DNA of 45,516 nt from Acidobacteriota bacterium (GCA_033791425.1 JASJGQ010000315.1:1-45516), one strand, 5' to 3'. Positions 7,939 to 34,073 are shown, numbered from the stretch's first letter. A program made the numbers and translations. Notes: a model not told the origin generated them from the sequence alone.

Positions 7939-7958
7939 TCACATTGACAGAGTTTTTT

Positions 7959-8049
<91 letters not shown>

Positions 8050-10287: not shown

Positions 10288-12204
10288 CTAGCCCTTTGAC
10301 GATCGCCGAAGGATCTTGCGGCGGTTTCCCTGGCGCACGGTCACTCGTTCCGAATCCAGCCACTCGAGAGCCGGGATCGCGAGTTTGCGGGTGAGGCCGA
10401 AGCGATCCTTGAAATCGCCGACCGCAAAATCGTCCACCCCCCACTCCCGAACGCCACGCGCGACATCGTCCAAAACGGCGCGGTGGATCAGGTATTTCCC
10501 CTCGAGACGAACCAGTCGATGGCGCTGCAGGAGAAACTTGCAGATCCCTTCTACCGAGGCCGGGCGCGCCGACAGACGTACCGCTGCCTCCCGTGGCGAC
10601 GGCGCCTCGAAACCGGTCTCGCGATAAAGGGCCTCAACCCTCCTCGAGAGCTCTTCTCCGCTGGCGGTCATGTGGCTGTCAGTTCCCGGTGGCACCACTC
10701 GGCCTTCAGCGAGCTCGATCACACCGCGCCCCCGCAGTTCCTCGAGATAAATATCAGCCAGGATACGGGCCCGGCGAGGCAGCAAGGCCCCGACAAAATC
10801 ACGCGCGGGAATCCCGGCAGAGACCTCCTCATCAGCGAGCCGCTGCTCGAGGGCCGCAGCCGCATCGGTCGCCAGCTCCTCCAATCGTGCAGCGGCGACA
10901 AATCTCACCGGTTGCGACGGCAGTCCCCTGATCGATCCCTCCGTGAGCAACTTTCCGAGCGGCGCTTCCACCGCAGATTCGAACACGCCGAGCCGGCCCG
11001 CAATTTTCGGCAACGGCAACCCAACCAGACCTTCGGCATCAACCCAGCTCAGGAGAAGTCGAGGCCATTCGCTGCGCTGGACACCCGGCAACTCATCGAG
11101 AGCAGCCGAATCCCGCCGGCGCCAGCGTCGGAGGTGCGCGTCCAGGACCTGCCCGCCGGCAAATGTATTGACCGGTGACGGTCGCCGCAAGACCACTCTG
11201 TCACCTGGAAAAAGCAACATCGGCTCGCGAAGAAGCAATTGCGCCACCGCCCGGTTGCCCGGTTCGAGCGGGCGCCGAGCCAGTCGATCGACCCGCCCAG
11301 AGACTCGCGCCGCGAGGGCGTGGACCTCGACCTCATCACCCTCATCCAGCGGACCCGGCGCCGTGGCGAGGAGCTCGAGTTGGATAGTGGCGAGTCGGGT
11401 CTCGACCCACGGCCCGGGGGACAGGATCTGTTGCCCGCGTTCGAGGCTGGCCTTGGAGATACCCGCGAGGTTGATCGCGACCCGCTCTCCGGCCTCGACC
11501 CGCCGCCGTTCCTCGCCGTGCACGTGGAGCCGTCGCGCCCTGGCAGTCAAATCGGCTGGGATGATCGAGACCTCGCCACCGACTTCCAAAGCGCCCCACA
11601 ACGAGGTTCCGGTGACTACGGTGCCTGCACCCGTGAGACTGAAAACTCGGTCAACCGGTTCCCGGAAGGGCCGCCCCTCGATCTGGTGCGGGCGCACCGT
11701 ACGGGCCTGTTCCACCAACACCCGTCGCAGCTCGTCGAGCCCGGCGCCGGTCTGGGCCGACACCGCCACCACCGGCACGTCGGCAAAGGCGGTCCCCGTC
11801 AGCAGCTCTCTGATCTCCTCAACCACCAACTCGACGAGTTCCGGATCGACGAGATCGACTTTGGACATCGCCACCGCTCCGCCCGGAACCCCCATCAGAC
11901 GAAGCACTTCGAGGTGCTCGCGTGTCTGCGGCATCACACCCTCGTCCGCTGCGATTACGAGCAACGCGAGATCGATCCCGGCCGCTCCTGCAATCATGGT
12001 GTGGACCAGCCGTTCGTGCCCCGGCACGTCGACGAAGTGGAGCCGAACGTCCTCGTCGGCGAGCTGCGCAAAACCGAGCTCGATGGTGATGCCGCGTTCT
12101 CGTTCTTCGGGCAGACGATCACAATCGGTGCCCGTGAGGGCCTTCACCAGGGTCGTCTTGCCATGGTCGATATGTCCCGCAGTTCCCCATACGACGTGCC
12201 GCAT
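10288..12204 (-). CDS. selB: Selenocysteine-specific elongation factor
   Basis: GTAGHIDHGKT, EERERGITIELGF, DVPGHE, PQTREHL and the C-terminal winged-helix motif FKDRFGLTRKLAIPALEWLD. Confidence 0.96.
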   Translation of the reverse strand: MRHVVWGTAGHIDHGKTTLVKALTGTDCDRLPEERERGITIELGFAQLADEDVRLHFVDVPGHERLVHTMIAGAAGIDLALLVIAADEGVMPQTREHLEVLRLMGVPGGAVAMSKVDLVDPELVELVVEEIRELLTGTAFADVPVVAVSAQTGAGLDELRRVLVEQARTVRPHQIEGRPFREPVDRVFSLTGAGTVVTGTSLWGALEVGGEVSIIPADLTARARRLHVHGEERRRVEAGERVAINLAGISKASLERGQQILSPGPWVETRLATIQLELLATAPGPLDEGDEVEVHALAARVSGRVDRLARRPLEPGNRAVAQLLLREPMLLFPGDRVVLRRPSPVNTFAGGQVLDAHLRRWRRRDSAALDELPGVQRSEWPRLLLSWVDAEGLVGLPLPKIAGRLGVFESAVEAPLGKLLTEGSIRGLPSQPVRFVAAARLEELATDAAAALEQRLADEEVSAGIPARDFVGALLPRRARILADIYLEELRGRGVIELAEGRVVPPGTDSHMTASGEELSRRVEALYRETGFEAPSPREAAVRLSARPASVEGICKFLLQRHRLVRLEGKYLIHRAVLDDVARGVREWGVDDFAVGDFKDRFGLTRKLAIPALEWLDSERVTVRQGNRRKILRRSSKG

Positions 12205-12279
12205 CGCTTCATGGTACACGTTTGGTCAAGGCCGTCTCGACGGTTTGGTCCCTGCGGCCGGAGTCTGTATCCTCGCCGG

Positions 12280-19570: not shown

Positions 19571-19586
19571 AGGCACAGAATTTGCC
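19571..19586 (+). promoter_or_regulatory. sigma54 (-24/-12) promoter of glnA
   Basis: AGGCACAGAATTTGCC fits GG-N10-GC with a GGCAC/TTGC core, 25 nt before the ATG. Confidence 0.7.
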
Positions 19587-19611
19587 AAACGAAACTCTCG
19601 GAGGCCACAAA

Positions 19612-20943
19612 ATGCCGGAAACAGCCAAGTCCATTCTCGCTCAGGCAGGCGAGGAAAACGTTCATTTTCTCCGTCTTCAATTCACCGACATCGACGGCAT
19701 CATCAAGAACGTCGAGGTGCCAGCGAGCCAATTCGAGAAGGCGCTCGACGGCCAGATCATGTTCGACGGATCGTCCATCGAGGGGTTCACCCGCATCGAG
19801 GAATCGGACATGCTGTTGGTGCCCGATATGGAAACCTTCCAGATCTTTCCGTGGGAGGCGACGCAGGGCAAGGTGGCGCGGCTGATCTGCGACATCGCGA
19901 CCCCTGACGGCAACACCTTTGCAGGCTGCCCCCGCAGCGCTCTCAAAAAAGTCGTGGCCAAGGCAAAAGACATGGGATTCGAGATGATGGCCGGCCCCGA
20001 GGCCGAGTTCTTTCTATTCCAGCGTGACACCAACGGCCTGCCGGTTCCTGCCACCCACGACACCGGCGGCTACTTCGATCTCAGCCCCATGGATCTCGGT
20101 GAAGAGGCACGACGCGACATCACCCTCGTCCTCGAGGCGATGGGTCTCGAGGTGGAGGCGGCGCATCACGAGGTGGCGCCCGGCCAGCACGAGATCGATT
20201 TCAAGTACGGCGAAGCCGTGGCCACTGCGGACGCAGTGGTGACCTTCCGCTTCGTGGTCAAAAAGGTCGCGCTGATGCACGGCCTCCACGCGACCTTCAT
20301 GCCCAAGCCCCTCGCCGGGGTCAATGGATCCGGGATGCATGTTCATCAATCGCTGTTCACGAGCGACGGCGAGAATTCGTTCTATGACCCGGACGGTCCG
20401 TCGCAGCTGTCCGCGGTCGGTCGGTACTACATCGCCGGTCTGCTTGACCACGCCCGTGCCTACGTCGCCCTCACCAACCCGTTGGTCAATTCCTACAAAA
20501 GGCTCGTGCCCGGCTACGAGGCGCCAGTCAACGTGGCGTGGTCGGAAAAGAACCGTTCGCCCATGATCCGCGTGCCGGCACGTCGAGGCGTCGGAACCCG
20601 CTGCGAGGTTCGGATCCCTGACCCGTCGTGCAACCCCTACCTCGCCTTTGCGGCCATGTTGGCCTCCGGCCTCGACGGCATCGAACGCGCGCTCGACTGC
20701 GGCGAGCCGGTCAACCGCAACATCTGGGAGATGAGTCAACGCGAGAAAAAGCGCCTCAAAATTCACGAACTGCCCGCCAGTCTCGACGAGGCGCTGGACT
20801 TCCTGGAGAAGGACAAACTGCTGCGCGAGGCCCTCGGCGACCACATCTTCGACCATTTCATTTTCAACAAACGAACCGAGTGGGCCGACTACATCAAAGA
20901 AATCCACCACTGGGAGCTCGAGCGGTACCTCGGCAGGTACTGA
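19612..20943 (+). CDS. glnA: Glutamine synthetase type I (short, GSI-alpha-like, 443 aa)
   Basis: FDGSSIEG, HHEVAPGQHEI, TFMPKP, NGSGMHVHQS, NSYKRLVPGYEAP and DPSCNPYL. Confidence 0.97.
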   Translation: MPETAKSILAQAGEENVHFLRLQFTDIDGIIKNVEVPASQFEKALDGQIMFDGSSIEGFTRIEESDMLLVPDMETFQIFPWEATQGKVARLICDIATPDGNTFAGCPRSALKKVVAKAKDMGFEMMAGPEAEFFLFQRDTNGLPVPATHDTGGYFDLSPMDLGEEARRDITLVLEAMGLEVEAAHHEVAPGQHEIDFKYGEAVATADAVVTFRFVVKKVALMHGLHATFMPKPLAGVNGSGMHVHQSLFTSDGENSFYDPDGPSQLSAVGRYYIAGLLDHARAYVALTNPLVNSYKRLVPGYEAPVNVAWSEKNRSPMIRVPARRGVGTRCEVRIPDPSCNPYLAFAAMLASGLDGIERALDCGEPVNRNIWEMSQREKKRLKIHELPASLDEALDFLEKDKLLREALGDHIFDHFIFNKRTEWADYIKEIHHWELERYLGRY

Positions 20944-20970
20944 TCAGCAGAGTCGCACCCCAGCCGAAGC

Positions 20971-21001
20971 AACGCCCCACCCATTCGGTGGGGCGTTTTC
21001 T
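20971..21001 (+). terminator. Intrinsic terminator after glnA
   Basis: AACGCCCCACC-CATTC-GGTGGGGCGTT followed by TTCT. Confidence 0.85.
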
Positions 21002-21015
21002 CAAGCACAAAAACA

Positions 21016-21033
21016 TTGTGTAAAAATTCACGA
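21016..21033. promoter_or_regulatory. Rex-like (or CRP-like) operator upstream of the accessory module
   Basis: TTGTGTA-AAAA-TTCACGA matches 12 of 14 positions of the Rex consensus TTGTGAA-N4-TTCACAA. Confidence 0.5.
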
Positions 21034-21102
21034 GAAGCTAAAGTAGACACTGTCCACCCCGGCGAAGATCGAGGCCCGCCGGGTTTGGGGGAGGGGTTGC
21101 CG

Positions 21103-22506
21103 ATGCCGATCATCTCCATTTCACAGGGCAGCTACAGCGGCTCCCAGGAGCTCGCCGAAGCCCTTCACAAGCGACTCGGCTACAAGGTCGTTCGGCTTGT
21201 GGACGCGCTCGAAGGCGCCAAACGGTACGGGATCTCCGAAGACGACATGTACCGTGGCCTCGACATGCCCGCCAACTTTTTCGAACGATTCAGCCGGCGC
21301 AAGGAACGGTACATCCTCGCCATGCAGGCAACCCTCGGCGAGTTGATGGCGGACGGCGACGGCATCTATTGCGGTCTCGCCGGTCAGTTCATCTTTCAGG
21401 GCTTGTGCGGGGTATTCAAGGTACGCCTCGTGGCGCCGATGGACTACCGCATTACGGCAACGATTTCAAATATGCGGGTGTCGCATGACGAGGCGGTCCG
21501 TTATATCCGTCACGCGGACGAACGACGGTCAAAATGGGGCCGGCAGATGTTCGGCGTTGATCTCAACAGCCCTGATCTCTACGACCTCGTGGTCAATCTC
21601 GAGCACATGAGCCTCGACATCGCAGCCGACATGATCACCGGGACCATCGAGCGCACCGATTTTCCCGACGACTGCAAACGCCAGTTCCAGGACTTCGCAC
21701 ACGAAAAACGGGTTCGTGCCGCCCTAAGGTTCAACTCTCCCTATATCGCTGACGGCATCGAGATCTCTGCCAAGGATGGTGTCGTCACCCTCTCCGGGGG
21801 ACGGGCCTTTGAGGACTCGCGGACCGAGATCGTCGACTTCGTGAGCCGGGTCAAAGGGGTGGCAAAGGTCGTCACTTCGACGGGTGAAGTGGTGTCGGTC
21901 GACTCCACGTTGGACCTCGACAGCGGTTTCTCGACGCGGGACACCACCGCCCGCGACGTCATGTTGCCGCCCGACAGCTACCCGCACTGTCGTTTGTCGT
22001 GCACCATTCGCGAAGCGGTTGTCGCTCTCAGCGCCTCAGCGGTCAAGCTCGAGGATGGCTACATGATGGTGCCGCGGTACGTCCTCGTGCTCGACGACGA
22101 TGGGGAGGAGATCCGCGGGATCGTCAGCCGTCGCGAGCTTCTGAAGGGCCTGATTCCGCACTTCCAGGAGGACAGAGAAACGGCGGACCATATCCGCAAG
22201 CTGGTCCCCTTCGGCGGCCAGACGCCGAGTGATCTCTTGATTCGCTGGACCTCGCTCTTCACACCCGCTGCCCTCGAAGCGTCGACCCACAGCATCGCCT
22301 CCATCACGGTTCCGATCCGGGGCACGGTCCAGGTCAGCGACTCGCTGTCGACAGTGATTTCGACCATGCTCCAGCACGGTGTCGACCTGGTGCCGGTCCT
22401 CGATGGGCAAAAGGTTGCCGGTGTCGTGCTGATGACCAACATCTTCGACATCGTGGCGCAGTTCATCATGGAGCACGGAGGTGCCGATCTCAGGAGGCCA
22501 CGCTGA
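21103..22506 (+). CDS. Fusion of cytidylate-kinase-like, BON and CBS-pair domains
   Basis: N-terminal IISISQGSYSGSQELA, KVRLVAP and YDLVVNL; BON motif IEISAKDGVVTLSG...VKGVAKV; CBS motifs TARDVM, IRGIVSRRELL and VPVLDGQKVAGVV. Confidence 0.78.
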   Translation: MPIISISQGSYSGSQELAEALHKRLGYKVVRLVDALEGAKRYGISEDDMYRGLDMPANFFERFSRRKERYILAMQATLGELMADGDGIYCGLAGQFIFQGLCGVFKVRLVAPMDYRITATISNMRVSHDEAVRYIRHADERRSKWGRQMFGVDLNSPDLYDLVVNLEHMSLDIAADMITGTIERTDFPDDCKRQFQDFAHEKRVRAALRFNSPYIADGIEISAKDGVVTLSGGRAFEDSRTEIVDFVSRVKGVAKVVTSTGEVVSVDSTLDLDSGFSTRDTTARDVMLPPDSYPHCRLSCTIREAVVALSASAVKLEDGYMMVPRYVLVLDDDGEEIRGIVSRRELLKGLIPHFQEDRETADHIRKLVPFGGQTPSDLLIRWTSLFTPAALEASTHSIASITVPIRGTVQVSDSLSTVISTMLQHGVDLVPVLDGQKVAGVVLMTNIFDIVAQFIMEHGGADLRRPR

Positions 22507-24056
22507 TGGCCGAGATCGAAAGCACCCCGAAAAAGCGTCGGTACTTCATTCTTCGGCGAAAACGACGATACGACATCGATTGGCGGCGGGTGTTCTTCCT
22601 GTCCCTCGGTGTGGTTCTGTTCTTCGCCGTTTATCTATCGCCGCCCTGGCCGGCCGCCATCGACCCCATGGGCGACGCTTTCGAGCTTTCCGCACAGGGC
22701 AAGGCAGCGCTGGGTCTGTTCCTGCTGGCCGCGGTGTGGTGGGTGTTCGAGGTCGTGCCGATCGGCGTCACCTCAATCACCATCGGGGTCGTCCAGGCGC
22801 TCTTTCTGATCCGCCCCGACATCATGCTGGTCAGCGGTGCTGCACCGATCGGCGGTGCGGAGCTCGCATTCAAAGAATTCATGCACCCCTCGGTGTGGTT
22901 TATCTTCGGCTCGATCGTCATCGGCATGGTCTTCACCAAGACCGGGCTCACCAAGAGGTTGGCCTACAAGATGCTGGTTCTGGTGGGCGAAAAGACCAGC
23001 CACATCTATCTCGGCTGTTTCATCATGACCGCGGCCCTGACGCTGGTCATGGCCCACACCGCGGTCGCTGCGACCGTGTTTCCCCTTTTGATCGCTATCT
23101 ACCGTCTGTACGACGAAGGGGATGAACCGACCCGTTTTGGCAAAGGGCTCTTTATGGGCATGGCCTATGTGGCCGGGGCAGGCAGCATCATCACCCTGCT
23201 CGGAGCCGCACGCGGTGCGGTGGCCCTCGGTTTCTACAAGGAAATCACCGGACAGGATGTCACGTTCTTTGGTCTGACCTGGTACATGTTTCCCGTCGGT
23301 TGGACGATGGTCTTCGTGCTGTGGGCCTTTTTCATGGTGTACTACAAGCCAGAACGCGCGACCATTCCGGGGTTGAGACAACGAGCTCGGGACCTCTACA
23401 GCCACCTCGGTCCGATCTCTGCCAAGGAGATCCAGGCAGCAGTCATCGTCATAGCGGCGGTTTCCATCATGAGCCTACGGTCGTTCATCCCGGCCCTCAA
23501 GAACGTCGACAAGAGCGGCGTCATTTTGCTCGCCACCGTCTTGTTCTTCGTCCTCAAAATCCTCGATATTGGCGACCTCGAGGATGTTCCCTGGAACATC
23601 ATCCTCCTCTTCGGCGGCGCCATGAGTCTCGGCTACTGCCTGGTTCTGACCGGTGCCGCGGATTGGCTCGCCATCAACACGGTCTCGACCCTCAAGACCG
23701 CACCCGCGATGGTCTTCATCATCGGCATGGCCTTCTTTGTCATGATCATGACCAACCTGATCATGAACGTCGCCGCTATCGCCATCTGTCTCCCGGTGGC
23801 CCTCAAGGTCGCCCCCTATCTCGGGGTCGGCGGCGAGGTCATCCTGTTCAGCGCTTTGGTGGTTGCCGGCATGCCCTTCCTGCTGCTGGTGGGAGCGGCG
23901 CCCAATGCCATCGCGTATGAAAGCAAACAGTTCACCTCAGGCGAGTTCTTCAAGGCCGGCATCCCCGCCAGTCTGCTGCTGATGGCGGTGGTCGCGATCT
24001 TCGTCATCTTCATCTGGCCGATCATGGGCATGGAGGTCCTCATCCCGACGCCGTAG
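22506..24056 (+). CDS. SLC13/DASS family anion transporter
   Basis: Multi-TM protein with WWVFEVVPIGVT, KTGLTKRLA, VPWNIILLFGGAMSLG and AAPNAIAY. Confidence 0.9.
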   Translation: MAEIESTPKKRRYFILRRKRRYDIDWRRVFFLSLGVVLFFAVYLSPPWPAAIDPMGDAFELSAQGKAALGLFLLAAVWWVFEVVPIGVTSITIGVVQALFLIRPDIMLVSGAAPIGGAELAFKEFMHPSVWFIFGSIVIGMVFTKTGLTKRLAYKMLVLVGEKTSHIYLGCFIMTAALTLVMAHTAVAATVFPLLIAIYRLYDEGDEPTRFGKGLFMGMAYVAGAGSIITLLGAARGAVALGFYKEITGQDVTFFGLTWYMFPVGWTMVFVLWAFFMVYYKPERATIPGLRQRARDLYSHLGPISAKEIQAAVIVIAAVSIMSLRSFIPALKNVDKSGVILLATVLFFVLKILDIGDLEDVPWNIILLFGGAMSLGYCLVLTGAADWLAINTVSTLKTAPAMVFIIGMAFFVMIMTNLIMNVAAIAICLPVALKVAPYLGVGGEVILFSALVVAGMPFLLLVGAAPNAIAYESKQFTSGEFFKAGIPASLLLMAVVAIFVIFIWPIMGMEVLIPTP

Positions 24057-24089
24057 GCACGCCGCGACTTAACCGAACAGGAGCAAAGG

Positions 24090-24716
24090 ATGCCGACTGA
24101 TAAACTGCTTTCCGGCCACCGTCGATTCAGAGAGAAATTTGCGTCGAAGCACGAGGTGTTCGTGAGACTCGCCGAGGAGGGTCAGCAACCCAAGGTGCTG
24201 TGGATCGGGTGCTCGGATTCGCGCGTGGTCCCAGAGTTGATCACCGGCGCCGATCCGGGTGAGCTCTTCAACGTTCGCAACATTGCCAATATCGTCCCGC
24301 CCGCGCCCACGATTGCGTGCGCCACCGGTGCCGCCATCGAGTACGCTGTCCTCCACCTCGAAGTCAGCCACATCGTCATCTGCGGCCACACCGAGTGCGG
24401 CGGGATCAAGGCCCTCGAGTCGCCGCCGTCGGCCGTCACCGAACCTCACATCGCATCCTGGCTGGAGCTTGCTCAGCCGGCAAGGGAGCGGGTCCTGGCC
24501 AGGGACGTGGCGACCGATCTGATCTACCTCGAGACCATCAAGACCAACGTGCTGCTCCAGTGCGAGAATCTCAGGTCCTACGCTTGTGTGGCTGAGCGCG
24601 AGGCAACCGATGCCCTGTCGGTCCACGCCTGGCTGTACGACCTGCACACAGGTTCCATTCTGGCCTTCGATGAAGCATCAACGGAGTGGAAGACCGTCGC
24701 TGAACAGGCTCTATGA
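24090..24716 (+). CDS. Beta-class carbonic anhydrase
   Basis: GQQPKVLWIGCSDSRV, PGELFNVRNIAN, AAIEYAV and GHTECGG. Confidence 0.95.
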   Translation: MPTDKLLSGHRRFREKFASKHEVFVRLAEEGQQPKVLWIGCSDSRVVPELITGADPGELFNVRNIANIVPPAPTIACATGAAIEYAVLHLEVSHIVICGHTECGGIKALESPPSAVTEPHIASWLELAQPARERVLARDVATDLIYLETIKTNVLLQCENLRSYACVAEREATDALSVHAWLYDLHTGSILAFDEASTEWKTVAEQAL

Positions 24717-24783
24717 ACCAGACACCTCTCTCCGCAACGCGCGCTACCATGGCAGGCACATGTCATTGGATGGGGGAAACACA

Positions 24784-26517
24784 ATGACTTCGACGAAGGG
24801 CCAAGATCGACCGCCTGCGCCCCGGGTGCAGATTCACACTGCGGTATTGATGCTTGCCCTCCTCATCATCGCCCCGCTGATCATCACCGGGGTGGTCAAT
24901 CTCCACCAATTTCGAACCGCTTACAAAAACAAGGTCGCAGACGAGCTCTCGGTCATGATCGAGCGGCACAGTGTGAACGTCGATTCGTTCCTCAGCGACC
25001 GTCTCTCAGACACCCGGGTCATTGCCCGCGAGCATCCTATCGAGCGTCTGCGCGAACCTGAATTCCTACGTCGGGTGCTCAACCTCATGCGCGAGGAGTA
25101 CGACGGCGCCTTTGTCGATCTCGGGCTGGTGGATTCCGAAGGCGTCCAGGTGGCATACGCAGGACCGTTCAACCTGCAGATGGCCGACTACTTTGACACC
25201 GCCTGGTTTCAGGACGTCTCGGAGAATGAGAGCATCATCAGCGATGTCTTCTCCGGGTTGCGCGGTTCGCCCCACTTCATTGTCGCCACCCGGCGATCGG
25301 TCGGCGACACGAGCTTCGTGGTCAAAGCCACGATCGATTTCGAGGCGTTCAACGCCTTGGTCGGAAACCTTCGGATCGGCAGCACCGGCTTTGCCTTCAT
25401 CATCAATCGCAAGGGCGAGTTCCAGACGAGCCCGCATTTCGAGGTGGCGCTCCATCAGCCGCCCTACTCGGATCTCCTGGATGGTCGTATTCGATCAGAT
25501 CGGATCTCGGTGTTGGCGGGGGAGGATGTTCTCGGGCGCAGGGCGATCTTCACCATCGCACCCCTCAAACAGGGGGATTGGTTCCTCTGCTACCAGCAGG
25601 AGACCTCCGACGCGTTTGCCGAATTGCGGCAGGTTCAGAATTTCGCCATCACGGTATCGATCGTTGTTTCCCTGGTTGCTGTCTTTCTGAGTTTTCTGAT
25701 CTCCCGCAATCTCGCGCAGCGCCTGGCCCTGGCCCACCACGAGCGAACCGTCATGACCCACCAGGTCATCGAAGCCGGTAGGTTGGCGTCGATTGGTGAG
25801 CTCGCCGCGGGAATCGCTCACGAGATCAACAACCCCGTGGCCATCATGGTTCAAGAGGCCGGCTGGATCGATGATTTGCTCGGTGAAGGCGACCCCTGCA
25901 CAGGAGAGAACCTCGAGGAAATCACTCGTGCGGTCAGCCAGATCCGCACCCAGGGTGATCGCTGCAAAGAGATCACCTACAAGCTTCTGAGTTTTGCCCG
26001 CAAGACCGACCCCACGGTCAAAGAAGTCCACCTCAACGAAGTTGTCGACGAGGTCATCGGACTCACGTCTCAGAAGACCCGTTACGCCAACGTCCACATC
26101 GAAACCAATATGAGTGCCGACATCCCGGTCATTTACGCTTCGGCCTCGGAGATCCAACAGGTTCTCCTCAATCTGGTGAACAACGCGATCGATGCCATCG
26201 GACAACCGGGCGGGACCGTGACGGTTTCCACGCGATCGGCAGGAGATGAGGTTGTTCTCGAGGTGCAGGACACCGGCAAAGGCATTCCCGAGGCCAATCT
26301 GGAACGAATCTTCGATCCGTTCTTCACCACCAAACCGGTGGGCCAGGGGACCGGTCTCGGGCTTTCGATCTGCTATGGAATCATCGAAAAATTGGGCGGA
26401 CGAATCACGGTTGAGAGCGAAATCGAAAAAGGCACCACTTTCACCGTGTTCTTCCCGACAGAGGCTCCCGAGCAGGTCGGGGATGGCGCATCGGATCTCA
26501 AGGGAGACACATCATGA
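24784..26517 (+). CDS. Membrane sensor histidine kinase (Cache-like sensor, NtrB-type core)
   Basis: Two TM helices; [15 protein letters not shown]-box; [15 protein letters not shown] and [18 protein letters not shown]. Confidence 0.93.
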
Positions 26518-26954
26518 TTGAGGCATCGGTATTACTGGTTGACGACGAGGTCCCGTTTGTCGAAACACTCGTCAAGCGCCTCTCCAAGAGGGATCTACGA
26601 GTCGAGGCTGCATTCAGCGGTCAGGAGGCGCTGGACACGCTTGCCGCCAGCGGTCCGGCAAAGACCGATGTCGTCATTCTCGACGTCAAGATGCCGGGAA
26701 TGGACGGTCTCGAGGCACTGTCGCGGATCAAAGAAGAGCACCCGATGATCGAGGTGATCATGCTCACCGGTCACGCCACTGTCGAATCGGCTATCGAAGG
26801 CATGAAACGCGGGGCCTACGACTATCTGATGAAACCGTGCGAGATCGATGTCCTGGTGGAAAAGGTGAGTCAGGCGGCCGCAAAAAAACGGGAGCATGAA
26901 TCGAAGATCTTGGAGGCTCGGGCCAGGATGATTTCACTCCGCAGGGGTGACTGA
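26514..26954 (+). CDS. Stand-alone response regulator receiver
   Basis: LLVDDE, VILDVKMPGMDG, MLTGH and YLMKP; no output domain. Confidence 0.93.
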   Translation: MIEASVLLVDDEVPFVETLVKRLSKRDLRVEAAFSGQEALDTLAASGPAKTDVVILDVKMPGMDGLEALSRIKEEHPMIEVIMLTGHATVESAIEGMKRGAYDYLMKPCEIDVLVEKVSQAAAKKREHESKILEARARMISLRRGD

Positions 26955-26964
26955 AAGAAATGCC

Positions 26965-27351
26965 ATGGTAAAAGACACCGATGGGATCAGGTTACTGCTG
27001 GTCGACGACGAAGTGGGCTACATCGAGGTACTGTCGAAACGACTCACTCGCCGTGGCTTCCAGGTCACGACCGCATCAAGTGGCGCTGAAGCGATCCGCG
27101 CCGCACGCAGATGGGATTTCGACATCGCAGTCGTCGATCTGAAGATGGAGGACATGGACGGCATCGAGGTGCTCAAGGTGCTCAAGAGGATGGTTCCGGC
27201 CCTTCATGTGATCATATTAACGGGTCATGGATCGGAGCGAGCGGCACGGGATGGCATCGCCCAGGGCGCCTTCGATTATCTGATCAAACCTATCGGTCTC
27301 GACCCGCTGATCGCCAGGATTCGTGCCGCGATGAGTTCGGAGACCGGTTGA
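26965..27351 (+). CDS. Stand-alone response regulator receiver
   Basis: LLVDDE, VVDLKMEDMDG, ILTGHG and YLIKP. Confidence 0.92.
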   Translation: MVKDTDGIRLLLVDDEVGYIEVLSKRLTRRGFQVTTASSGAEAIRAARRWDFDIAVVDLKMEDMDGIEVLKVLKRMVPALHVIILTGHGSERAARDGIAQGAFDYLIKPIGLDPLIARIRAAMSSETG

Positions 27352-27435
27352 ATTGTGCCCGGACTTTGGCCGATCACCCGATGAGTGCCGGAGGCTGACG
27401 CCTGTGTGTCGTCATCAATTCGAAGGAGGGAAGTC

Positions 27436-28746
27436 GTGAAGTTCTTCAAGGCATTGGGAGAATTTATGATGGTTGCGACCCGCGCCCACGCGGAGTGGGA
27501 AATCGAGACGTCGAACAGGATCCTGCACGACCCCAAAAGACTCCTGATTCTGATCCTGTTGATGGTACCGATATTCGTCTTTGGACCGGCGGTGGCCGCC
27601 CAGATGATGGATCAGGCCGCGGCCGCCGGTGATGCGCTACCCGACATCCTCGGGGGGAAAAAGGCCTACAGCCCGGCTTTCTACTCGACCGGGATTTTCA
27701 TCGCATCGATTTTCATCGGCCTGTGCGCGGGTCTGATCACCGGCTGCATCGGGGCGGGTGGCGGCTTCATCATCGCACCAGCGCTCATGTCGGCCGGCAT
27801 CAAGGGGATTCTGGCGGTTGGAACCGACCTCTTTCATATTTTCGCCAAGGCGATCATGGGCAGCGTGATCCACCGGAAGTTGGGCAACGTGTCGGTCCCG
27901 CTCGCCTTCACTTTTCTCATCGGGGCAATCGGTGGCGCCACACTCGGTGGCGTGATCAACCGGGTGCTCTACGAGATCAACCCGGTCCTGTCCGACGCAT
28001 TTATCACCACCATCTATTCGATCATGCTCGGCGGACTCGGCGCCTACGCCATGATCGACTACCTCAAGGCGCGCAAAAGCGCCGGTCCGGATAACGACGC
28101 CCACGGCGGCCGCGCGGAGGGCGCCGACCTCGGCAACCTGCCAAAGAAGCTGCAGGCGATCAAGGCCCCGCCGATGATCACGTTCGACCAGAACTTGGTG
28201 CCGGGAGGGCGCCAGATCTCGGCCTGGTTCCTGATCGCGAGCGGATTCCTGGTCGGCTTTGCCGCAGCCATCATGGGCGTCGGTGGCGGTTTTCTGACCT
28301 TTCCGATCTTCGTCTACACCCTCGGTGTCTCATCCATGACCACCGTCGGGACGGACATCTTCCAGATCGTCTTCACGGCCGGTTATGCCGCGATCTCCCA
28401 GTACGCGATCTACGGCTTCATCTTCTACACCCTCGCGATGGGCATGCTGATCGGATCGCTCTTTGGCGTCCAGGTGGGCGCCATGGTCACCAAGGTCGTC
28501 GATGGCATTACCATCCGAGGTTTCTACGCGATGGCGGTGCTGGCCGGCTTTATCAACCGGATCTTCGCCCTTCCCGGCAAGCTCTCCGATCTCGAAGTGA
28601 TTTCACTGTCTCCCGGTGTGATCAGCGTACTCGATGGGATCGGGATCTGGGCCTTCTTCCTGGTCATCGGGGGATTTGCGGTGTGGGTTCTCTATACGTT
28701 TTTCAGCAGCCTCGGCAAGCTCCGCGGGACGGAGGTGGCGTCATGA
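27436..28746 (+). CDS. Sulfite exporter TauE/SafE (TSUP) family membrane protein, long form
   Basis: Duplicated motifs GCIGAGGGFIIAP/AVGTDLF and IMGVGGGFLTFP/TVGTDIF; RBS AAGGAGG before GTG 27436. Confidence 0.88.
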   Translation: MKFFKALGEFMMVATRAHAEWEIETSNRILHDPKRLLILILLMVPIFVFGPAVAAQMMDQAAAAGDALPDILGGKKAYSPAFYSTGIFIASIFIGLCAGLITGCIGAGGGFIIAPALMSAGIKGILAVGTDLFHIFAKAIMGSVIHRKLGNVSVPLAFTFLIGAIGGATLGGVINRVLYEINPVLSDAFITTIYSIMLGGLGAYAMIDYLKARKSAGPDNDAHGGRAEGADLGNLPKKLQAIKAPPMITFDQNLVPGGRQISAWFLIASGFLVGFAAAIMGVGGGFLTFPIFVYTLGVSSMTTVGTDIFQIVFTAGYAAISQYAIYGFIFYTLAMGMLIGSLFGVQVGAMVTKVVDGITIRGFYAMAVLAGFINRIFALPGKLSDLEVISLSPGVISVLDGIGIWAFFLVIGGFAVWVLYTFFSSLGKLRGTEVAS

Positions 28747-29438
28747 AAAGGATCAAGAAGAAGGAACTCGGCATCGGCATCTTCCTTCTGGCAACCTTCT
28801 CCGCCGTCATGATCGCTATCTTCATGCCGCTGATCGACGGGGAAAATATCCTCAACTACCTGGACAATCTCTACAACTCAATCTCCAAAGGCTCGGCCTA
28901 CTACATTCCAAAGGTGGAGCACCTGGTCGAGGACCATGGCAGCGAGGTGGTCACGCTCAACCTCAAGATGGAGACCGCGGAAGCCGCAGCGACCGCCGAG
29001 CATCTCTTCGCCCGTTCCGGGGCCACGACGTTAATCGATGATGGTGCGACCCTGATGGTCAACGGTGACCTCGAGGCCATATTCAAAACATGCCTGGAAG
29101 ATTCGGAATCGGCCTACCACAACCGAACGGATGAGCTTGTTGCCCGATACGGCATGGAGGCACGGCCCGCCCTCCATTCATGGTGGCAAGCTCTCAAGGC
29201 GATGGAGAAAGACCTCAACCGGCAGAAGCTCTTTAACGCAGCCCAACTCACGCACACAGTTCAGGCCAAGACCGTGGAGTGCGCCTACAACTACTACGGT
29301 ATCGAGGCCCAGGAGATCAAGAACCGCTGGGGAACCGTTCTCTTTTCGCTGGTTTTCTACGTGATCTATACGATCTGGTACGGCTACGGGATCATGTACA
29401 TATTCGAAGGACTGGGGTTCGAGCTGGCGGCCCACTGA
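28743..29438 (+). CDS. Membrane protein (two TM helices, periplasmic loop) coupled to the TauE gene
   Basis: ATGA overlap with tauE; LNYLDNLYNSISKGSAYYIP, VECAYNYYGIEA and FYVIYTIWYGYGIMYIFEGLG. Confidence 0.8.
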   Translation: MKRIKKKELGIGIFLLATFSAVMIAIFMPLIDGENILNYLDNLYNSISKGSAYYIPKVEHLVEDHGSEVVTLNLKMETAEAAATAEHLFARSGATTLIDDGATLMVNGDLEAIFKTCLEDSESAYHNRTDELVARYGMEARPALHSWWQALKAMEKDLNRQKLFNAAQLTHTVQAKTVECAYNYYGIEAQEIKNRWGTVLFSLVFYVIYTIWYGYGIMYIFEGLGFELAAH

Positions 29439-29522
29439 CAGGGCGCGACCGGCGCCGGCATCCGCGATAAGATACACCCGACGCGCAGGCGCCCGGCCGG
29501 CGCGTCGGTCACGGAGGATGTC

Positions 29523-29969
29523 ATGGCCATCGCGGTACTCCTGGTCGACGATGAAGAGACCTTCGTCGAGACCCTGGCGAAGCGACTCACGCTGCGCCGA
29601 TTCAACGTCTACACCGCCACCCGGGCTCCGCGGGTCTTCGAAACCCTCGACGAAAACCTCATCGACGTGGTCGTGCTCGATGTCCGGATGCCCGACCTCG
29701 ACGGGATCGAGGCAACCCAGAAGATCAAAACCTCCCACCCGCTTGTCGAGGTCATTCTGCTCACCGGCCACGCCAGCATGGAGGCCTCGCTCGAGGGGTT
29801 GAAGATGGGGGCCTTCGACTACCTCATCAAACCGGTCAACATCGACGAGTTGGTGTACAAGATCGAGGACGCTCACCGCAAGAAGGTGCTCCAGGAGGAG
29901 AAGATCCGAAGGCTGAGAGATCAAACCGATGAGACGGCCGACGAGGCGGGTTCCGGCGCCAGCGATTGA
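29523..29969 (+). CDS. Stand-alone response regulator receiver
   Basis: LLVDDE, VLDVRMPDLDG, LLTGHA and YLIKP; RBS GGAGG. Confidence 0.93.
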   Translation: MAIAVLLVDDEETFVETLAKRLTLRRFNVYTATRAPRVFETLDENLIDVVVLDVRMPDLDGIEATQKIKTSHPLVEVILLTGHASMEASLEGLKMGAFDYLIKPVNIDELVYKIEDAHRKKVLQEEKIRRLRDQTDETADEAGSGASD

Positions 29970-29970
29970 T

Positions 29971-32553
29971 ATGCATGATCCCTCGTGGTGGAGACGCCTG
30001 ATCGACCGCCTCCGCGGACCCTCTGGAGAAGTTCCCGACCCGGAGGCGGCGCGCGAACTCTTTCAACGCCGGTACCATGCGCTGCGCCTGCTGCTCGCCG
30101 CCAACACCCGGGCTCTCAAATCGATGGCGACGATGGAACAGGCTGTCCTGAGCAATCGAATCTTCCCGATGGCTTTCGTGCGAACCCACTGCACGGCAGT
30201 CGGGGTCAACGTCTTCAAGATGGTCCGCAACCTCGACACTCTCGCGCCCGAGAAATACTCGCTCCTCTTCGAGCGCCTGCAGGCGATTCAAAGGGAGATC
30301 GACCACGAGATCGCCGCACTGCCCCGCCCTCCGGACACGCCCTTTGTCCTGCCGATGTCGGGAATCAGCCACCAACACCTCGATGTCGCCGGTTCCAAGA
30401 TGGCCACCCTCGGTGAGATCGGCAATGATGTCGGTCTGACCGTGCCGCCGGGCTTTGTCATCACGACCTCCGCGTACGAGAGCCTGATCGCGGCCAACGA
30501 CCTCCAACCCGAGATCGACCGCCTCCTCCAGACCCACCAAAGGGAGAGAATCGACGAACTCTTCGTGCTCAGCTCCATGCTCCAGCAACTCATCCTGTCG
30601 GCCGAGGTCCCGACCGACATCGCCGATGCGATCGACGACGCCGCCGCCGAGATCGGCGATCCCGCCGCGGACACGACCTTTGCCCTTCGATCCAGCGCCC
30701 TCGGCGAGGACTCGGCAGACGTGTCCTTTGCCGGCCAGTACGAATCGTTGCTCAACGTCCGCCGAACCAACCTGGTGGCCAGCTATCTCGAGGTGGTGGC
30801 CAGCAAGTACACGCCCCAGGCCATGCAGTACCGCCTGCAACGTGGCCTCCGCGACGACGATGTGGCCATGAGCGTGGGTTGTCTGTGGATGGTCGACGCG
30901 CGCTCCGGGGGCGTCGCCTATACGGGAAACCCGGGCGACCGGGAGGATGACAGCGTCTTTATCAGTTCGGCCTGGGGGTTGCCGAAGGCCATCGTCGACG
31001 GTCGGTTCGCCTCCGACCTCATCATTGTCGACCGCGCCGAACCGCCCCGAATCACCTCGCGCGAGATCGGCGACAAAAAAACGAAGTTCATTCTCCACCA
31101 TCGCGAAGGCGTGCGGCGGTCCGATGTCGAAGAGGATCTGCAGCGGCAATCCTCTCTCACCGATACCGAAGCGCTGGCGATCGCCGAAATGGCCGTCCGG
31201 CTGGAGGGCCACTTCGGAACCCCGGTGGACATCGAGTGGGCGACCACGAACGACGATCGGATTGTGGTCCTCCAATGCCGGCCGTTCAGTCAGTCGATGA
31301 GGGGCTTGGACCACGAGCTGCCGGCGGACACCCCCGCGCCGCTGGTCCGCGCAGGTGTCGGCGCCAGCCCCGGGGCTGCGGCCGGCGTCGTCCGAAGGGT
31401 CGGGCGTGACGCCGATGCCCTGTCATTCCCGGACGGCGCCATCCTCGTCTTGTCTCAACCACTCCCTCGGTGGGCCGCCCTTCTGGACAGGACCGCTGCG
31501 GTCGTGGCCGAGGAGGGAGGTGTTGCCGGTCATCTGGCAACCGTGGCCCGCGAGCTCGCGGTGCCTGCCCTGTTCGGTGCCGGTTCCCTCGACGCCCTGG
31601 AGGACGGCATCGAGGTCACGGTCGACGCATCCGGCCGGGCGGTCTACCCCGGCCGCATCGAGGCCCTCCTTTCGGTTCCAGGGGTGACACCGGATTCGAT
31701 TCCCGACAATCCGATTCGCAAGACCTTGCGGCGCGTGCTGACTCACATCTCGCCCCTCAATCTGATCGATCCGGACGGCATCGACTTCAAGCCCGCCAAC
31801 TGCCGGACGCTGCACGACATCACGCGCTTCTGCCACGAGCAGGCGGTGCGCGAGATCTTCGCCTTCGGTTCCGATGCCTCCTTCCCGGAATACGCGAGCA
31901 AACAGCTCCACCACAATGTGCCGATGCAGTGGTGGGTTCTGGATCTGGGAAACGGATTGAAGGACACCGTCACCGGCAAGTACGTCCACCTGGAAGACAT
32001 CGCGTGCAAACCGATGCTCGCCCTGTGGGACGGCATGATCGCGGTGCCGTGGGACGGGCCGCCGGCGGTCAGCGGGCGCGGCCTCGCCTCGGTTCTGTTT
32101 CAAGCGACCGCCAACCCGGCGCTCTCCAGCCCATTCAAGAAACCGTATGCGGACAAGAACTACTTCATCATCTCCAAACACTTCATGAATCTGCAGTCAC
32201 GTTTCGGCTTTCACTTCACCAATGTGGAGGCCCTTGCCGGCGAGCGCCCCGAGGAAAACTATCTGAGCTTTTCCTTCAAGGGGGGTGCCGCCGATCGCGA
32301 TCGGAAGGCGGGACGAGCGCGCTTTATCGGTGGTTTGCTCGCGAATCTAGGTTTCGAAACCGGTGTTACAGAGGACATGGTGACTGCTCGCCGGACCAAT
32401 CTCGAACACCAGGCAGTCGAGGATGGCGTTCGCGTCGTCGGCTATCTCCTGATGCACACCCGCCAGCTCGACATGATTATGAACAAGCCGGCGATGGTGG
32501 AACACTATCGCAAGAAAATGCAGGCAGACATCGAGGGTCTTGCTGAAGACTGA
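29971..32553 (+). CDS. PEP synthase/PPDK-like protein (ATP-grasp, phospho-His swivel and an unknown C-terminal domain)
   Basis: AGSKMATL, VPPGFVIT, LRSSALGED, SFAGQY, DIEWA, LQCRP, GASPG and GGVAGHLATVARE. Confidence 0.88.
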   Translation: MHDPSWWRRLIDRLRGPSGEVPDPEAARELFQRRYHALRLLLAANTRALKSMATMEQAVLSNRIFPMAFVRTHCTAVGVNVFKMVRNLDTLAPEKYSLLFERLQAIQREIDHEIAALPRPPDTPFVLPMSGISHQHLDVAGSKMATLGEIGNDVGLTVPPGFVITTSAYESLIAANDLQPEIDRLLQTHQRERIDELFVLSSMLQQLILSAEVPTDIADAIDDAAAEIGDPAADTTFALRSSALGEDSADVSFAGQYESLLNVRRTNLVASYLEVVASKYTPQAMQYRLQRGLRDDDVAMSVGCLWMVDARSGGVAYTGNPGDREDDSVFISSAWGLPKAIVDGRFASDLIIVDRAEPPRITSREIGDKKTKFILHHREGVRRSDVEEDLQRQSSLTDTEALAIAEMAVRLEGHFGTPVDIEWATTNDDRIVVLQCRPFSQSMRGLDHELPADTPAPLVRAGVGASPGAAAGVVRRVGRDADALSFPDGAILVLSQPLPRWAALLDRTAAVVAEEGGVAGHLATVARELAVPALFGAGSLDALEDGIEVTVDASGRAVYPGRIEALLSVPGVTPDSIPDNPIRKTLRRVLTHISPLNLIDPDGIDFKPANCRTLHDITRFCHEQAVREIFAFGSDASFPEYASKQLHHNVPMQWWVLDLGNGLKDTVTGKYVHLEDIACKPMLALWDGMIAVPWDGPPAVSGRGLASVLFQATANPALSSPFKKPYADKNYFIISKHFMNLQSRFGFHFTNVEALAGERPEENYLSFSFKGGAADRDRKAGRARFIGGLLANLGFETGVTEDMVTARRTNLEHQAVEDGVRVVGYLLMHTRQLDMIMNKPAMVEHYRKKMQADIEGLAED

Positions 32554-32602
32554 TTGCGACCGGCGGAAGTTTTCCGGCCGTGCGACGATTGTACCTTCGG
32601 GG

Positions 32603-33661
32603 ATGGACACGCAACGAAACACCAACGGAGCCCTGGCAGAAGCACTCTTCTCGCTGGCGGACTCGGAGCCGCCCGGCGACAGGCGGCTGGCGCTGCTCAA
32701 GGCCGGATACGCGGCTTTCGACAGCCCCGGTACCGTGCGTCGAGTTCTGCACGAGGACGCACCTCCGTGGCTCCGTCCGTTGATCTCCCAGCTCTACGAG
32801 TGCCATTCGGTCGATGCGCTTGAAGCGGCGGTCCAGCGACTTCGGGGCACCGCGGAAACTCGCCGCCGCCCGGTCCGCCAGGGTTATCTCTGCCGCGCCT
32901 CGATGATTCAGACCCTCAGCGAAGGCAACCCCGATCTTCACCCGGACCGCATGAGGGGCGCCTTTCACTGGCACACCCGCGACTCCGACGGCAAGGCGAC
33001 CCTCGATATGATGGCGCGCGCCTGCCGGCGGCGCGGGTTTGCATGGTCGATGGTGACCGATCACTCGCGAGGCCTCGAGGTGGCTTCCGGTCTCGATCGG
33101 GAGGGTCTTCGACTCCAGCGCGGCCGCATCGAGACGTGGAACAAACAACACGGAGAAGACCACCACGTCTTTCAGGGACTCGAGGTCGAGGTTCTTGGCG
33201 ACGGTTCGCTGGATGTACCCAAGGGAGAACGGCTGGAAGTGGACTGTGTGGTCGCCGCGGTCCACAGCCTCTTCGATCCCGATCGCGATCAGACGGATCG
33301 CCTCGTGCGCGCGGTTTCGACTCCCGGGGTCCACGTCCTCGCCCACCCCCGCGGGCGCCACTTCCACCACCGCCCCGGTCTCAAGGCGCGGTGGGAGCGG
33401 GTGTTCGAGGCCTGCGCCGAACACGGTGTGGCGGTCGAGATCAACGGCTTCCCCCGCCGGCAGGACCTCGACGCCAATCTCGCTCGGCTCGCCGTGACCT
33501 CAGGCTGCGAAATCATTCTTGCCTCGGACGCTCACGCGGTCCCGCATCTGGAATTTGATGCCTACGCCGCGGCGATCGCCATCCGTGCCGAAGTCCCGCG
33601 CGAACGAATCGTCAACGTCCTTCACGGCGATGAGTTCGAGGTGTGGCTGGGGGAACGATAG
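32603..33661 (+). CDS. PHP domain protein (PolX-associated type)
   Basis: HWHTRDSDG, TDHS, AHPRGR, EING and SDAH metal-binding motifs. Confidence 0.85.
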   Translation: MDTQRNTNGALAEALFSLADSEPPGDRRLALLKAGYAAFDSPGTVRRVLHEDAPPWLRPLISQLYECHSVDALEAAVQRLRGTAETRRRPVRQGYLCRASMIQTLSEGNPDLHPDRMRGAFHWHTRDSDGKATLDMMARACRRRGFAWSMVTDHSRGLEVASGLDREGLRLQRGRIETWNKQHGEDHHVFQGLEVEVLGDGSLDVPKGERLEVDCVVAAVHSLFDPDRDQTDRLVRAVSTPGVHVLAHPRGRHFHHRPGLKARWERVFEACAEHGVAVEINGFPRRQDLDANLARLAVTSGCEIILASDAHAVPHLEFDAYAAAIAIRAEVPRERIVNVLHGDEFEVWLGER

Positions 33662-33788: not shown

Positions 33789-34073
33789 CCACCCACCCTC
33801 CCCCGTACACAGGCAATGGTCGGCGCACCGAGTGAGCAGGTCAGTGTGCGGCGGAGGTGCCATTTGTCGCATTGTTGGAGTTCGACTCACCAATCCACTC
33901 GAGCATTTGGGGCAATCAATGCGATGGGTGGCTCCTCTCGGGAAGCGAGCGGTGAGAATCGGGCGATCTCGAACATTATTTGACCTCAGCTCGTCGTAGC
34001 GAGCGGCGGGCGGGCATCCGGCTTCGCCCACCGGGCTACGCCGGGACAGATCGGGGACGGGGACGAAAACGAA

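Follow-up and report, generated by a model that had tools for sequence, protein, structure and literature searches.

Among the genes of a 45,516-nucleotide stretch of DNA from an Acidobacteriota bacterium (GCA_033791425.1 JASJGQ010000315.1:1-45516), hereafter the window, lies a block of ten, g1 to g10, that runs on the plus strand from glnA to a gene for a PHP-domain protein. We lean towards reading this block as a composite operon of two regulated anion-uptake modules, which accompany dissimilatory sulfate or sulfite reduction and which are controlled and were acquired as proposed below. Module A (g1-g3) combines a soluble cytidylate-kinase-like (CK-like)/BON/CBS protein, a permease of the DASS family and a beta-class carbonic anhydrase (CA). 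Module B (g4-g10) combines a sensor histidine kinase (HK), three stand-alone receivers (REC), a TauE/TSUP permease, a membrane protein that we call X8, and PpsL, an enzyme resembling phosphoenolpyruvate (PEP) synthase. This reading is carried by the gene content, the composite structure of the block, its insertion site, the foreign origin of module B and the association of these genes with dsrA.

Two modules at one insertion site

Gene calls and intergenic gaps confirm ten co-directional and closely packed genes, as a first, sequence-only reading of the window had described them; from g1 to g10 the gaps are -1, 33, about 43, -4, -8, 33, -4, 84 and 1 nt (Table 1). Every domain assignment of that reading was recovered with Pfam and NCBIfam, and with the same models none of the ten genes encodes a DNA-binding regulator, again as it had stated. 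Contigs from marine-sediment metagenomes (four runs of two studies, one run maybe from the source sample) span the junctions glnA/g1, g1-g4, g3-g7, g8-g10 and g10/PHP. Since all critical junctions are bridged in this way, the gene order is not an assembly artefact. Scans of the region with Rfam and for tRNAs gave no match inside the block. The terminator that had been placed behind glnA is borne out in part: there is a hairpin at 20980-20992, but it is a weak match to the consensus, and the region holds 18 terminator-like sites where 10.6 are expected from shuffles.

As a single conserved unit the ten genes did not hold up, for outside the host genus they never occur together. They form two separable modules, and this separability rests on the glnA/PHP site, which is empty, occupied by module A only, or full in related genomes (L and G numbers are our designations for loci and genomes). 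In a dsrA-positive genome of the sister genus (G205), glnA is followed by the PHP gene after about 830 bp (L122). The congener G020 reads glnA-g1-g2-g3-PHP (L121) and carries g4-g10 on another contig, behind a sigma-54 NtrC-type regulator (L021). The window and the congeners G021, G018 and G006 hold all ten genes in identical order at the site, the G006 copy being frameshifted, and G014 holds all ten plus an inserted block. Along the same lines, only 3 of 80 named PpsL loci have a g2-type DASS gene and only 1 has a beta-CA. The flanks of the window are housekeeping genes, and GC content is 0.587 in g4-g9, 0.605 in g1-g3 and 0.62 in the flanks.

Table 1. The ten genes of the block and the features at its edges, with positions in the window and likely start codons.
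Feature	Description	Coordinates	Strand	Basis and remarks
glnA	upstream flank	19582..20943		
spacer	159 nt, 3' of glnA; upstream edge of insertion	20944..21102	+	weak terminator-like hairpin
g1	soluble CK-like (PF13189) + BON + CBS-pair protein, 467 aa	21103..22506	+	Pfam; start codon refined; stop overlaps g2 start by 1 nt
g2	DASS-family anion permease, 516 aa	22506..24056	+	PF00939, TIGR00785
g3	beta-class carbonic anhydrase, 208 aa	24090..24716	+	PF00484
g4	sensor histidine kinase, periplasmic dCache_1 between two transmembrane (TM) helices	24760..26517	+	Pfam, TM scan; start codon refined (ATG)
g5	stand-alone receiver, 146 aa	26514..26954	+	PF00072 only; 4-nt overlap with g4
g6	stand-alone receiver, 134 aa	26947..27351	+	PF00072 only; 8-nt overlap with g5
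g7	TauE/TSUP permease, long form, 453 aa	27385..28746	+	PF01925
g8 (X8)	membrane protein of no known family, 231 aa	28743..29438	+	ATGA overlap with g7; start codon refined (ATG)
g9	stand-alone receiver, 148 aa	29523..29969	+	PF00072 only; ends 1 nt before g10
g10 (PpsL)	PpsA-like enzyme, 860 aa	29971..32553	+	Pfam, NCBIfam, PDB sequence matches; start codon refined (ATG)
PHP gene	downstream flank	32540..33661		

Where did the modules come from? The sequence-only reading had suggested an import of the block from Desulfobacterota into a host outside that phylum, which stands for g4-g10 and is not supported in this form for g2, a gene with a different history. On sequence comparison, module B is an import from Desulfobacterota, because the same gene order is found in Desulfarculaceae, the trees are nested and the host's own order holds only distant paralogues. 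The Desulfarculaceae loci, including that of Desulfocarbo indianensis, share the order HK, REC, REC, TauE, X8, REC, PpsL and are the nearest relatives outside the host family, with identities of 74-77% for TauE, 66-75% for the receivers (71-75% for g5), 49-55% for the kinase and 50-51% for PpsL. In the host's own order only paralogues of 31-37% identity are found, and two sampled genomes from other genera of the host family are dsrA-positive with no PpsL match. The TauE tree places an acidobacterial clade (13 rows; support 100, starred) inside a 31-row clade (100, starred) that is otherwise dominated by Desulfobacterota. PpsL trees rooted on paralogues place the host clade (99, starred) inside a 29-row clade with Desulfarculaceae (97, starred), and the starred branches of a 42-row IQ-TREE of PpsL split Desulfobacterota into at least three pieces. 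A second acidobacterial clade, from Terriglobia, nests elsewhere in Desulfobacterota in the TauE and PpsL trees. Module B would have entered the ancestor of the Sulfomarinibacteraceae genus from a Desulfarculales-like donor, landing between glnA and the PHP gene.

For g2 the sequences make an exchange between phyla evident and leave its direction open: it forms a clade (100, starred) with an acidobacterium of a sister family at 73% identity, and in the polytomy formed by the other g2 sequences, Desulfobacterota (64-68% in that alignment) are interspersed with other Acidobacteriota. One database entry deserves a remark here: the PpsL of DATIVB010000388.1 (L043), titled 'Chondromyces sp.', is identical to that of a genome of the host genus (L026, G017), and its taxonomic label is probably wrong.

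Association with dissimilatory sulfur metabolism

The closest named relatives of g10 come from metagenome-assembled genomes labelled Acidobacteria, Thermoanaerobaculales and Candidatus Sulfomarinibacteraceae, and the host is a sulfate-reducing marine acidobacterium of the Ca. Sulfomarinibacteraceae. Its genome, 89% complete, encodes dsrA (559 bits), aprA (875) and sat (378), all over the curated cut-offs. The link to dissimilatory sulfur metabolism that had been suspected from the window is supported by these host genes and by the occurrence of the C-terminal domain of PpsL (C-domain), which follows dsrA in two phyla. Among 301 genomes of Acidobacteriota it is present in 23 of the 35 with dsrA and in none of the 266 without, and its holders span seven family codes. 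Among 251 genomes of Desulfobacterota it occurs in 95/128 dsrA-positive and 5/123 dsrA-negative ones, so that 95 of its 100 holders carry dsrA. The g2-type DASS (at least 54% identity) behaves in a similar way: it is found in 7 of the 301 Acidobacteriota, all dsrA-positive, and in 48 of the 251 Desulfobacterota, 47 of them dsrA-positive.

The association extends to physical neighbourhood. In 9 of the 23 acidobacterial holders PpsL lies no more than 20 kb from dsrA. Two paralogous modules of the acidobacterial family f30 lie immediately beside the core genes: L117 (G180:C224:8500-28499) reads dsrAB...dsrC-dsrMKJOP-sat, a cobyrinic-acid-amidase-like gene, CK-like, TauE, PpsL and CK-like, and L115 (G077:C19:9500-29400) has dsrBA-qmo-aprAB-TauE next to HK-REC-PpsL-PpsL. 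In Desulfovibrionaceae a single genome has up to 9 C-domain matches.

A side observation concerns dsrA itself: the match in the host (G000:C21:2009-3157) and those in many other genomes contain one in-frame stop (TAG, TAA or TGA) near the end, which may reflect a match running past the natural stop.

A related system has been described in the literature. The look-alike that the sequence-only reading placed in Desulfovibrio is the 'nitrate cluster', DVU0251-DVU0245 / Dde_0597-Dde_0605 (Korte et al. 2014, PMC4001038). In that study, mutants in the genes for TauE, the small membrane protein, the REC and PpsL are nitrate-resistant, and a mutant in the adjacent dual-specificity phosphatase (DSP) gene remains sensitive in D. 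vulgaris; the resistance is to 100-150 mM external nitrate and is read by the authors as blocked entry. This pattern of mutants is consistent with PpsL and REC activating the permease and with the phosphatase opposing them. The published gene list is found in our Desulfovibrionaceae locus L131, which encodes DUF169, TauE, a hypothetical protein, a PtxB-like protein, an sCache/PAS kinase, REC, a PpsA-like protein and a DSP; the pair of PpsL and DSP is present in L131 and L133. Plant glucan-water dikinase is likewise opposed by a dual-specificity phosphatase, SEX4, and this pairing of enzymes is the same as that of PpsL and DSP in the Desulfovibrio type.

The block contains the core of the nitrate cluster: TauE, a small membrane protein, a sensor kinase, a lone receiver and a PPDK_N plus mobile-His protein devoid of the TIM barrel; both are found in sulfate reducers and neither includes a DNA-binding regulator. 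Their differences are equally clear. The accessories DUF169, the PtxB-like binding protein and the DSP are absent from the ten genes and from the whole window, and the sCache/HAMP/PAS kinase of the nitrate-cluster type is not found in the block, where the kinase is of the dCache type, the receivers number three and TauE is 453 aa long. Unlike the nitrate cluster, module B is accompanied in the host genus by the DASS/CBS/CA trio. The PpsL of L131 is 31% identical to g10, and proteins in that range of identity group with the outgroup-type paralogues of the PpsL tree; the small membrane protein of this type contains 3-4 TM helices, and the X8 profile has no match in L131 at E<=1. Because PpsL is only 31% identical and the small membrane proteins show no detectable relationship, we regard the block as a paralogous variant of the nitrate cluster. 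Within the library searched, there was no functional follow-up of DVU0251/DVU0246, Dde_0598/Dde_0604 or the nitrate cluster; the main text of Trotter 2023 contains 0 mentions of DVU024x/DVU025x, and its supplements may hold fitness data.

A proposed control system and its alternatives

How might these parts work together? From them we infer a substrate, a direction of transport and every step of phosphotransfer. In module A, g1 would act as an adenylate or energy sensor that sets the activity of the g2 permease, and g3 would couple transport to the interconversion of CO2 and bicarbonate. In module B, the TauE permease g7 would work with X8 as an obligatory, new two-TM subunit. The dCache kinase g4 would sense an external anion and phosphorylate the receivers g5, g6 and g9, which, being free of DNA-binding domains, would act on proteins and not on promoters. 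Receiver g9 would dock on PpsL; PpsL would use ATP to load its swivel residue His521, and its C-domain would phosphorylate a hydroxyl-bearing target, most likely the permease complex, and so turn transport on. Sulfate and/or thiosulfate would be the most likely substrates. A wider and more doubtful generalisation makes PpsL a large family of ATP-driven swivel-His phosphotransferases nearly confined to organisms with dsrAB: through receivers and CBS/kinase-like proteins it would gate TauE/X8 and DASS for regulated uptake of sulfate or thiosulfate, DASS and CA would form a metabolon for sulfate:bicarbonate exchange, and the device would move between phyla together with the dsr lifestyle.

The product of g1 scores 103 bits for Cytidylate_kin2, 28.5 for BON and 40.9 for CBS. 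That of g2 reaches 154.9 bits with Na_sulph_symp (PF00939, cut-off 27) and passes the curated cut-off of TIGR00785 'dass' marginally (200.5 vs 198.6); the CitMHS model PF03600 matches it as well. With Pro_CA (PF00484) g3 scores 160.1 bits against a cut-off of 25.7, and its translation contains CSDSR and HTECGG, which we take to be the zinc-ligand motifs (Cys-x-Asp-x-Arg and His-x-x-Cys).

Similar combinations recur around g2-type DASS genes. CBS or CK-like proteins precede them in L034, L127, L128, L129 and L098, and the string dCache-HK, REC, CBS protein, DASS is repeated in L129 and L098. A longer variant in L126/L127 runs from an H+-pyrophosphatase through a CBS protein, CK-like+REC, a dCache kinase, REC and REC to the g2-type DASS; its CK-like (PF13189) protein fused to REC lies at L127:11303-12580 (G082). 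CK-like proteins also adjoin TauE or DASS in L028, L030, L034 and L117. In its logic, g1 would resemble the CBS modules acting on OpuA, MgtE and ClC and the PII-like SbtB acting on the bicarbonate carrier SbtA: the gene for a secondary carrier is accompanied by one for a cytoplasmic protein that binds nucleotides and presumably gates the carrier, and a CA or bicarbonate context is common to both sides of the comparison. Unlike those regulators, g1 is a separate polypeptide in a phosphorelay context, its CBS pair being fused to PF13189 and BON.

In L034 and L128 the g2 orthologues are adjoined by an LCIB-type CA (PF18599) that is not homologous to g3; since two unrelated CA families stand beside orthologous DASS genes, a functional tie to CO2 or bicarbonate can be argued. 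The same tie invites an alternative that we hold to be unlikely, in which DASS moves dicarboxylates or bicarbonate and CA helps to assimilate carbon or to keep the pH constant; TauE/X8 would then be a neighbour with no part in this, and the link to sulfate reducers would come from a shared anaerobic ecology. Many members of the DASS family are dicarboxylate carriers, in line with the CitMHS match of g2, CAs of two families do recur beside its relatives, and the DASS gene of L128 has a GntR regulator before it and a CitMHS transporter behind it. This alternative is opposed by the near-complete overlap of g2-type DASS with dsrA (7/7 and 47/48 holders), by the company that the DASS of L126/L127 keeps, with its H+-pyrophosphatase and HK/REC/CBS genes, and by the fact that at least 9 of the 48 holders among Desulfobacterota have the g2-type DASS gene no farther than 7 kb from a PpsL gene.

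The second permease, g7, is assigned to PF01925 with 122.9 bits (gathering cut-off 32.6), and a hydropathy scan shows multiple TM segments on either side of a long central loop, plus one additional TM helix at the N-terminus. X8 has one N-terminal and one C-terminal TM helix flanking a domain of about 165 aa, which the positive-inside rule would place in the periplasm. It matches no Pfam family even at E<=1. Its structural model is confident (pLDDT 92.8) and shows an alpha/beta-helical domain between the two TM helices; neither Foldseek (best E 0.055) nor VIA (best Z 8.1, rmsd 3.9, 110 aligned, mostly helical) gave a clear structural neighbour, and in the structure Atlas only unnamed clusters were met. 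TauE and X8 travel as a pair: among the 62 PpsL-orthologue loci with at least 3.5 kb of DNA upstream of PpsL, 47 have both upstream on the same strand and none has one alone.

Uptake is not the only conceivable direction. That TauE/X8, and perhaps DASS, export sulfite, thiosulfate or another toxic anion through a valve which the phosphorelay opens when the internal level rises is an improbable reading, although the founding members of TauE are sulfite and sulfoacetate exporters (Pfam name; Marietou 2018) and a position beside dsr and apr genes would suit an exporter too. The periplasmic dCache sensor of the kinase points instead to a signal from outside, the large domain of X8 probably faces the same side, and the nitrate resistance that follows the loss of the Desulfovibrio homologues was read as blocked entry (PMC4001038). 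Besides dCache_1 (65.1 bits), g4 contains HisKA and HATPase_c. Each of g5, g6 and g9 consists of Response_reg alone (92-102 bits); in g9 the residues D9, D10, D53 and K103 are invariant in 26 orthologues, and the translations of g5 and g6 show the same DD...D...K pattern. TauE and X8 are present in 41 of the 52 loci with at least 7.5 kb upstream, and of these 41, REC is upstream in 40 and a kinase in 26. A REC gene lies no more than 400 nt upstream of PpsL in 30 of 71 intact orthologues, a count whose filter also dropped the closest congeners.

PpsL is an unusual member of the block. Its refined start gives the same 860-aa form as the entry in the protein collection. A helical N-domain (residues 1 to about 125) is followed by the ATP-grasp domain PPDK_N (295.1 bits), by the swivel-His domain (PEP-utilizers, 56.7 bits), whose H521 is invariant in 26 sequences, and by an unnamed C-domain of 290 aa that replaces the TIM barrel. 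PEP-utilizers_C is absent: residues 575-874 have no Pfam match even at E<=1, hence no PF02896 barrel. PpsL shares ATP-grasp and mobile-His domains with the superfamily of PEP synthase, PPDK and rifampicin phosphotransferase, and the PEP synthases 2ols, 9dae and 8a8e match its residues from about 118 to 584 with E values of 1e-51 to 5e-54, the matches ending at about 584. Unlike the members of that superfamily, it has the helical N-domain and the 290-aa C-domain and no barrel for PEP or pyruvate; it falls short of the whole-protein models of PEP synthase (TIGR01418, 303.8 vs 739.75; PRK06464, 312.6 vs 598) and lies far under the cut-off of all NCBIfam equivalogs. When a true PpsA or PPDK was sought in the host, the two candidates (on C14 and C409) were themselves devoid of a TIM barrel.

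The C-domain alone retrieves 3658 homologues at E<=1e-5, and its profile has no match in PDB sequences or Pfam. It is rich in Arg and Gly, contains an FKGGAAD-like loop and keeps certain C, H, D and R residues invariant. Its model, with a core pLDDT above 80, is no barrel but a sandwich of the alpha/beta kind that includes long helices. The best VIA match is the C-terminal part of a PAP phosphatase (rmsd 3.0, 80 aligned), in a range that denotes a common arrangement, and the Atlas returned unnamed clusters plus a row with TM 0.37 to a YbjN cluster. For PpsL with g9, complex prediction gave a score of 0.52 (runs 0.52, 0.59 and 0.50), the best of three controls reaching 0.00; the runs agree in at least 67% of the contacts and the pLDDT of the partner is at least 82. 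The mark applied here is reached by 116 of 157 solved complexes and by 2 of 215 mismatches, and passes with scores up to 0.60 comprise only 18 of the 157 solved complexes and both passing mismatches. The prediction thus lends weak support to a contact between the two proteins.

Could PpsL simply be a metabolic enzyme? It might phosphorylate a small molecule, or recycle the AMP and PPi arising from Sat and APS reductase, and be merely co-expressed with the permeases. The complete ATP-grasp and swivel-His core would allow this, the conserved C-domain resembles an anion-binding site in its composition, paralogues adjoin sat, apr and H+-pyrophosphatase genes, and the many matches in Desulfovibrionaceae are in keeping with it. 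We rate this as improbable as export, given that no neighbours of PpsL are more constant than receivers and kinases, that its partner in the Desulfovibrio type is a dual-specificity protein phosphatase, that REC and PpsL mutants phenocopy the permease mutant (PMC4001038) and that the weak predicted contact joins it to a receiver. Least probable of all is ordinary transcriptional two-component control, with the receivers as shuttles or sinks and a DNA-binding regulator encoded elsewhere in the genome as output: a sigma-54 NtrC-type regulator does lie directly upstream of the kinase in G006 (L019:11968-13404) and G020 (L021:6324-7604), and another in the paralogue loci L028 and L128, but no such gene exists within the 45-kb window, a promoter scan found no sigma-54-like site before g1, g4 or g9 (32 sites in total vs 40.7 by chance), REC genes are individually paired with permeases in L017 and L018, and REC is fused to a CK-like protein in L127.

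The pairing in L017 and L018 speaks for post-translational control of permeases. In the congeners concerned, about 6-8 kb are inserted between X8 and g9 (L017:6571-12405 and L018:7005-14334); the inserted DNA contains two DASS-receiver pairs in tandem, the DASS being a distant one (28% identical to g2) that comes with a receiver of its own, and further genes for kinases and receivers, which in L018 comprise a dCache kinase, a receiver and a REC-kinase hybrid. In Maridesulfovibrio sp. FT414, a set of genes at L107:14786-20831 encodes a CBS protein, a P-II-like protein, two DUF1538 membrane proteins and a REC; it lies about 4 kb from a lone PpsL orthologue and is divergent from a dCache kinase-REC-REC set, showing the same control logic on a different putative permease.

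Several observations weigh against a regulated anion-uptake operon of sulfate reducers. Dicarboxylates too are substrates of DASS members, and the name of TauE refers to sulfite export. DsrD was not found in the host, in a genome 89% complete and by a search that had no positive control. The C-domain is missing from 12 of 35 dsrA-positive Acidobacteriota and 33 of 128 dsrA-positive Desulfobacterota and is present in 5 dsrA-negative Desulfobacterota; all these co-occurrence counts treat related genomes as independent, and some of the genomes are incomplete. No full-length orthologue was obtained from 7 of 24 congeners, some of these genomes being only 65-70% complete, and 15 of the 62 PpsL-orthologue loci have no TauE/X8 upstream on the same strand. 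As to origin, the difference in GC content between block and flanks is small, and the sister group in the TauE tree is left undecided by a fork of support 83, drawn open. In G006, in G020 and probably in Desulfarculaceae the kinase is preceded by a sigma-54 NtrC-type regulator, so that a transcriptional output elsewhere is possible, and small receivers might be shuttles or phosphate sinks. The model of the C-domain is only partly reliable (mean pLDDT 71.9, with the most conserved Cys/His stretch below 50), and no structural neighbour stands out (Foldseek against PDB, best E 0.02; VIA wide, best Z 7.2). The score for PpsL and g9 lies in a weak band, where a pass is more often wrong unless the contact was likely beforehand. 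For the nitrate cluster, finally, the authors only hypothesise a leaky thiosulfate importer through which nitrate enters non-specifically (PMC4001038).

Neighbouring features and wider meaning

The surroundings of the block contain further features. The PHP gene, also on the plus strand, overlaps g10 by 14 nt or, with the ATG at 32603, starts at +49 from g10. It was considered as a member of the module and rejected, being resident at the same site in the sister genus that has no module (L122). Some members of the PHP family are protein phosphatases, and a secondary functional tie to the module is conceivable. Between the PHP gene and glyA, about 100 nt (33846-33947) reach 3-5 times the depth of their flanks in four metagenome runs, with many alternative joints, as would a repeated sequence or an element that many genomes share. 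No tRNA or Rfam family was recognised in this segment, and its fold z-score is -1.14. On the other side, glnA is preceded by a sigma-54-like -24/-12 element with one mismatch at 19571-19585. Further upstream, selB lies at 10288-12219 on the minus strand and two tRNA-Ser genes at 7849-8048 on the plus strand, and therefore the host probably makes selenoproteins. At 39535-42558 on the minus strand, a 1008-aa protein has an unusual architecture, with a receiver at its N-terminus, a Ser/Thr protein kinase domain and TonB_C at its C-terminus.

What is new here is the composite structure, an insertion site in three states, the donor lineage and a quantitative association with dsrA, together with paralogues adjoining sat, apr and dsr, the replacement of one CA by another, the fusion of CK-like and REC, and two structural models without clear neighbours. 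The route by which sulfate enters sulfate reducers, and the way in which they limit this uptake, have yet to be settled; a comparative survey of sulfate transporters could assign no role to TSUP proteins (Marietou 2018). A defined set of genes makes this question testable: TauE with X8, a subgroup of DASS, PpsL, receivers and CBS/kinase-like proteins follow dsrA in two phyla and in some genomes lie inside a sat-apr-dsr cluster. X8 is a new family of membrane proteins with a confident model and no clear structural neighbour, and PpsL, if the proposal is true, would be a new use of PEP-synthase chemistry in signalling. The Desulfovibrio relatives govern sensitivity to nitrate, which is relevant to the control of oil-field souring. 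From the clean series of empty, three-gene and ten-gene sites it can be seen that accessory 'sulfate-reducer' modules have moved into Acidobacteriota with acquired dsr genes.

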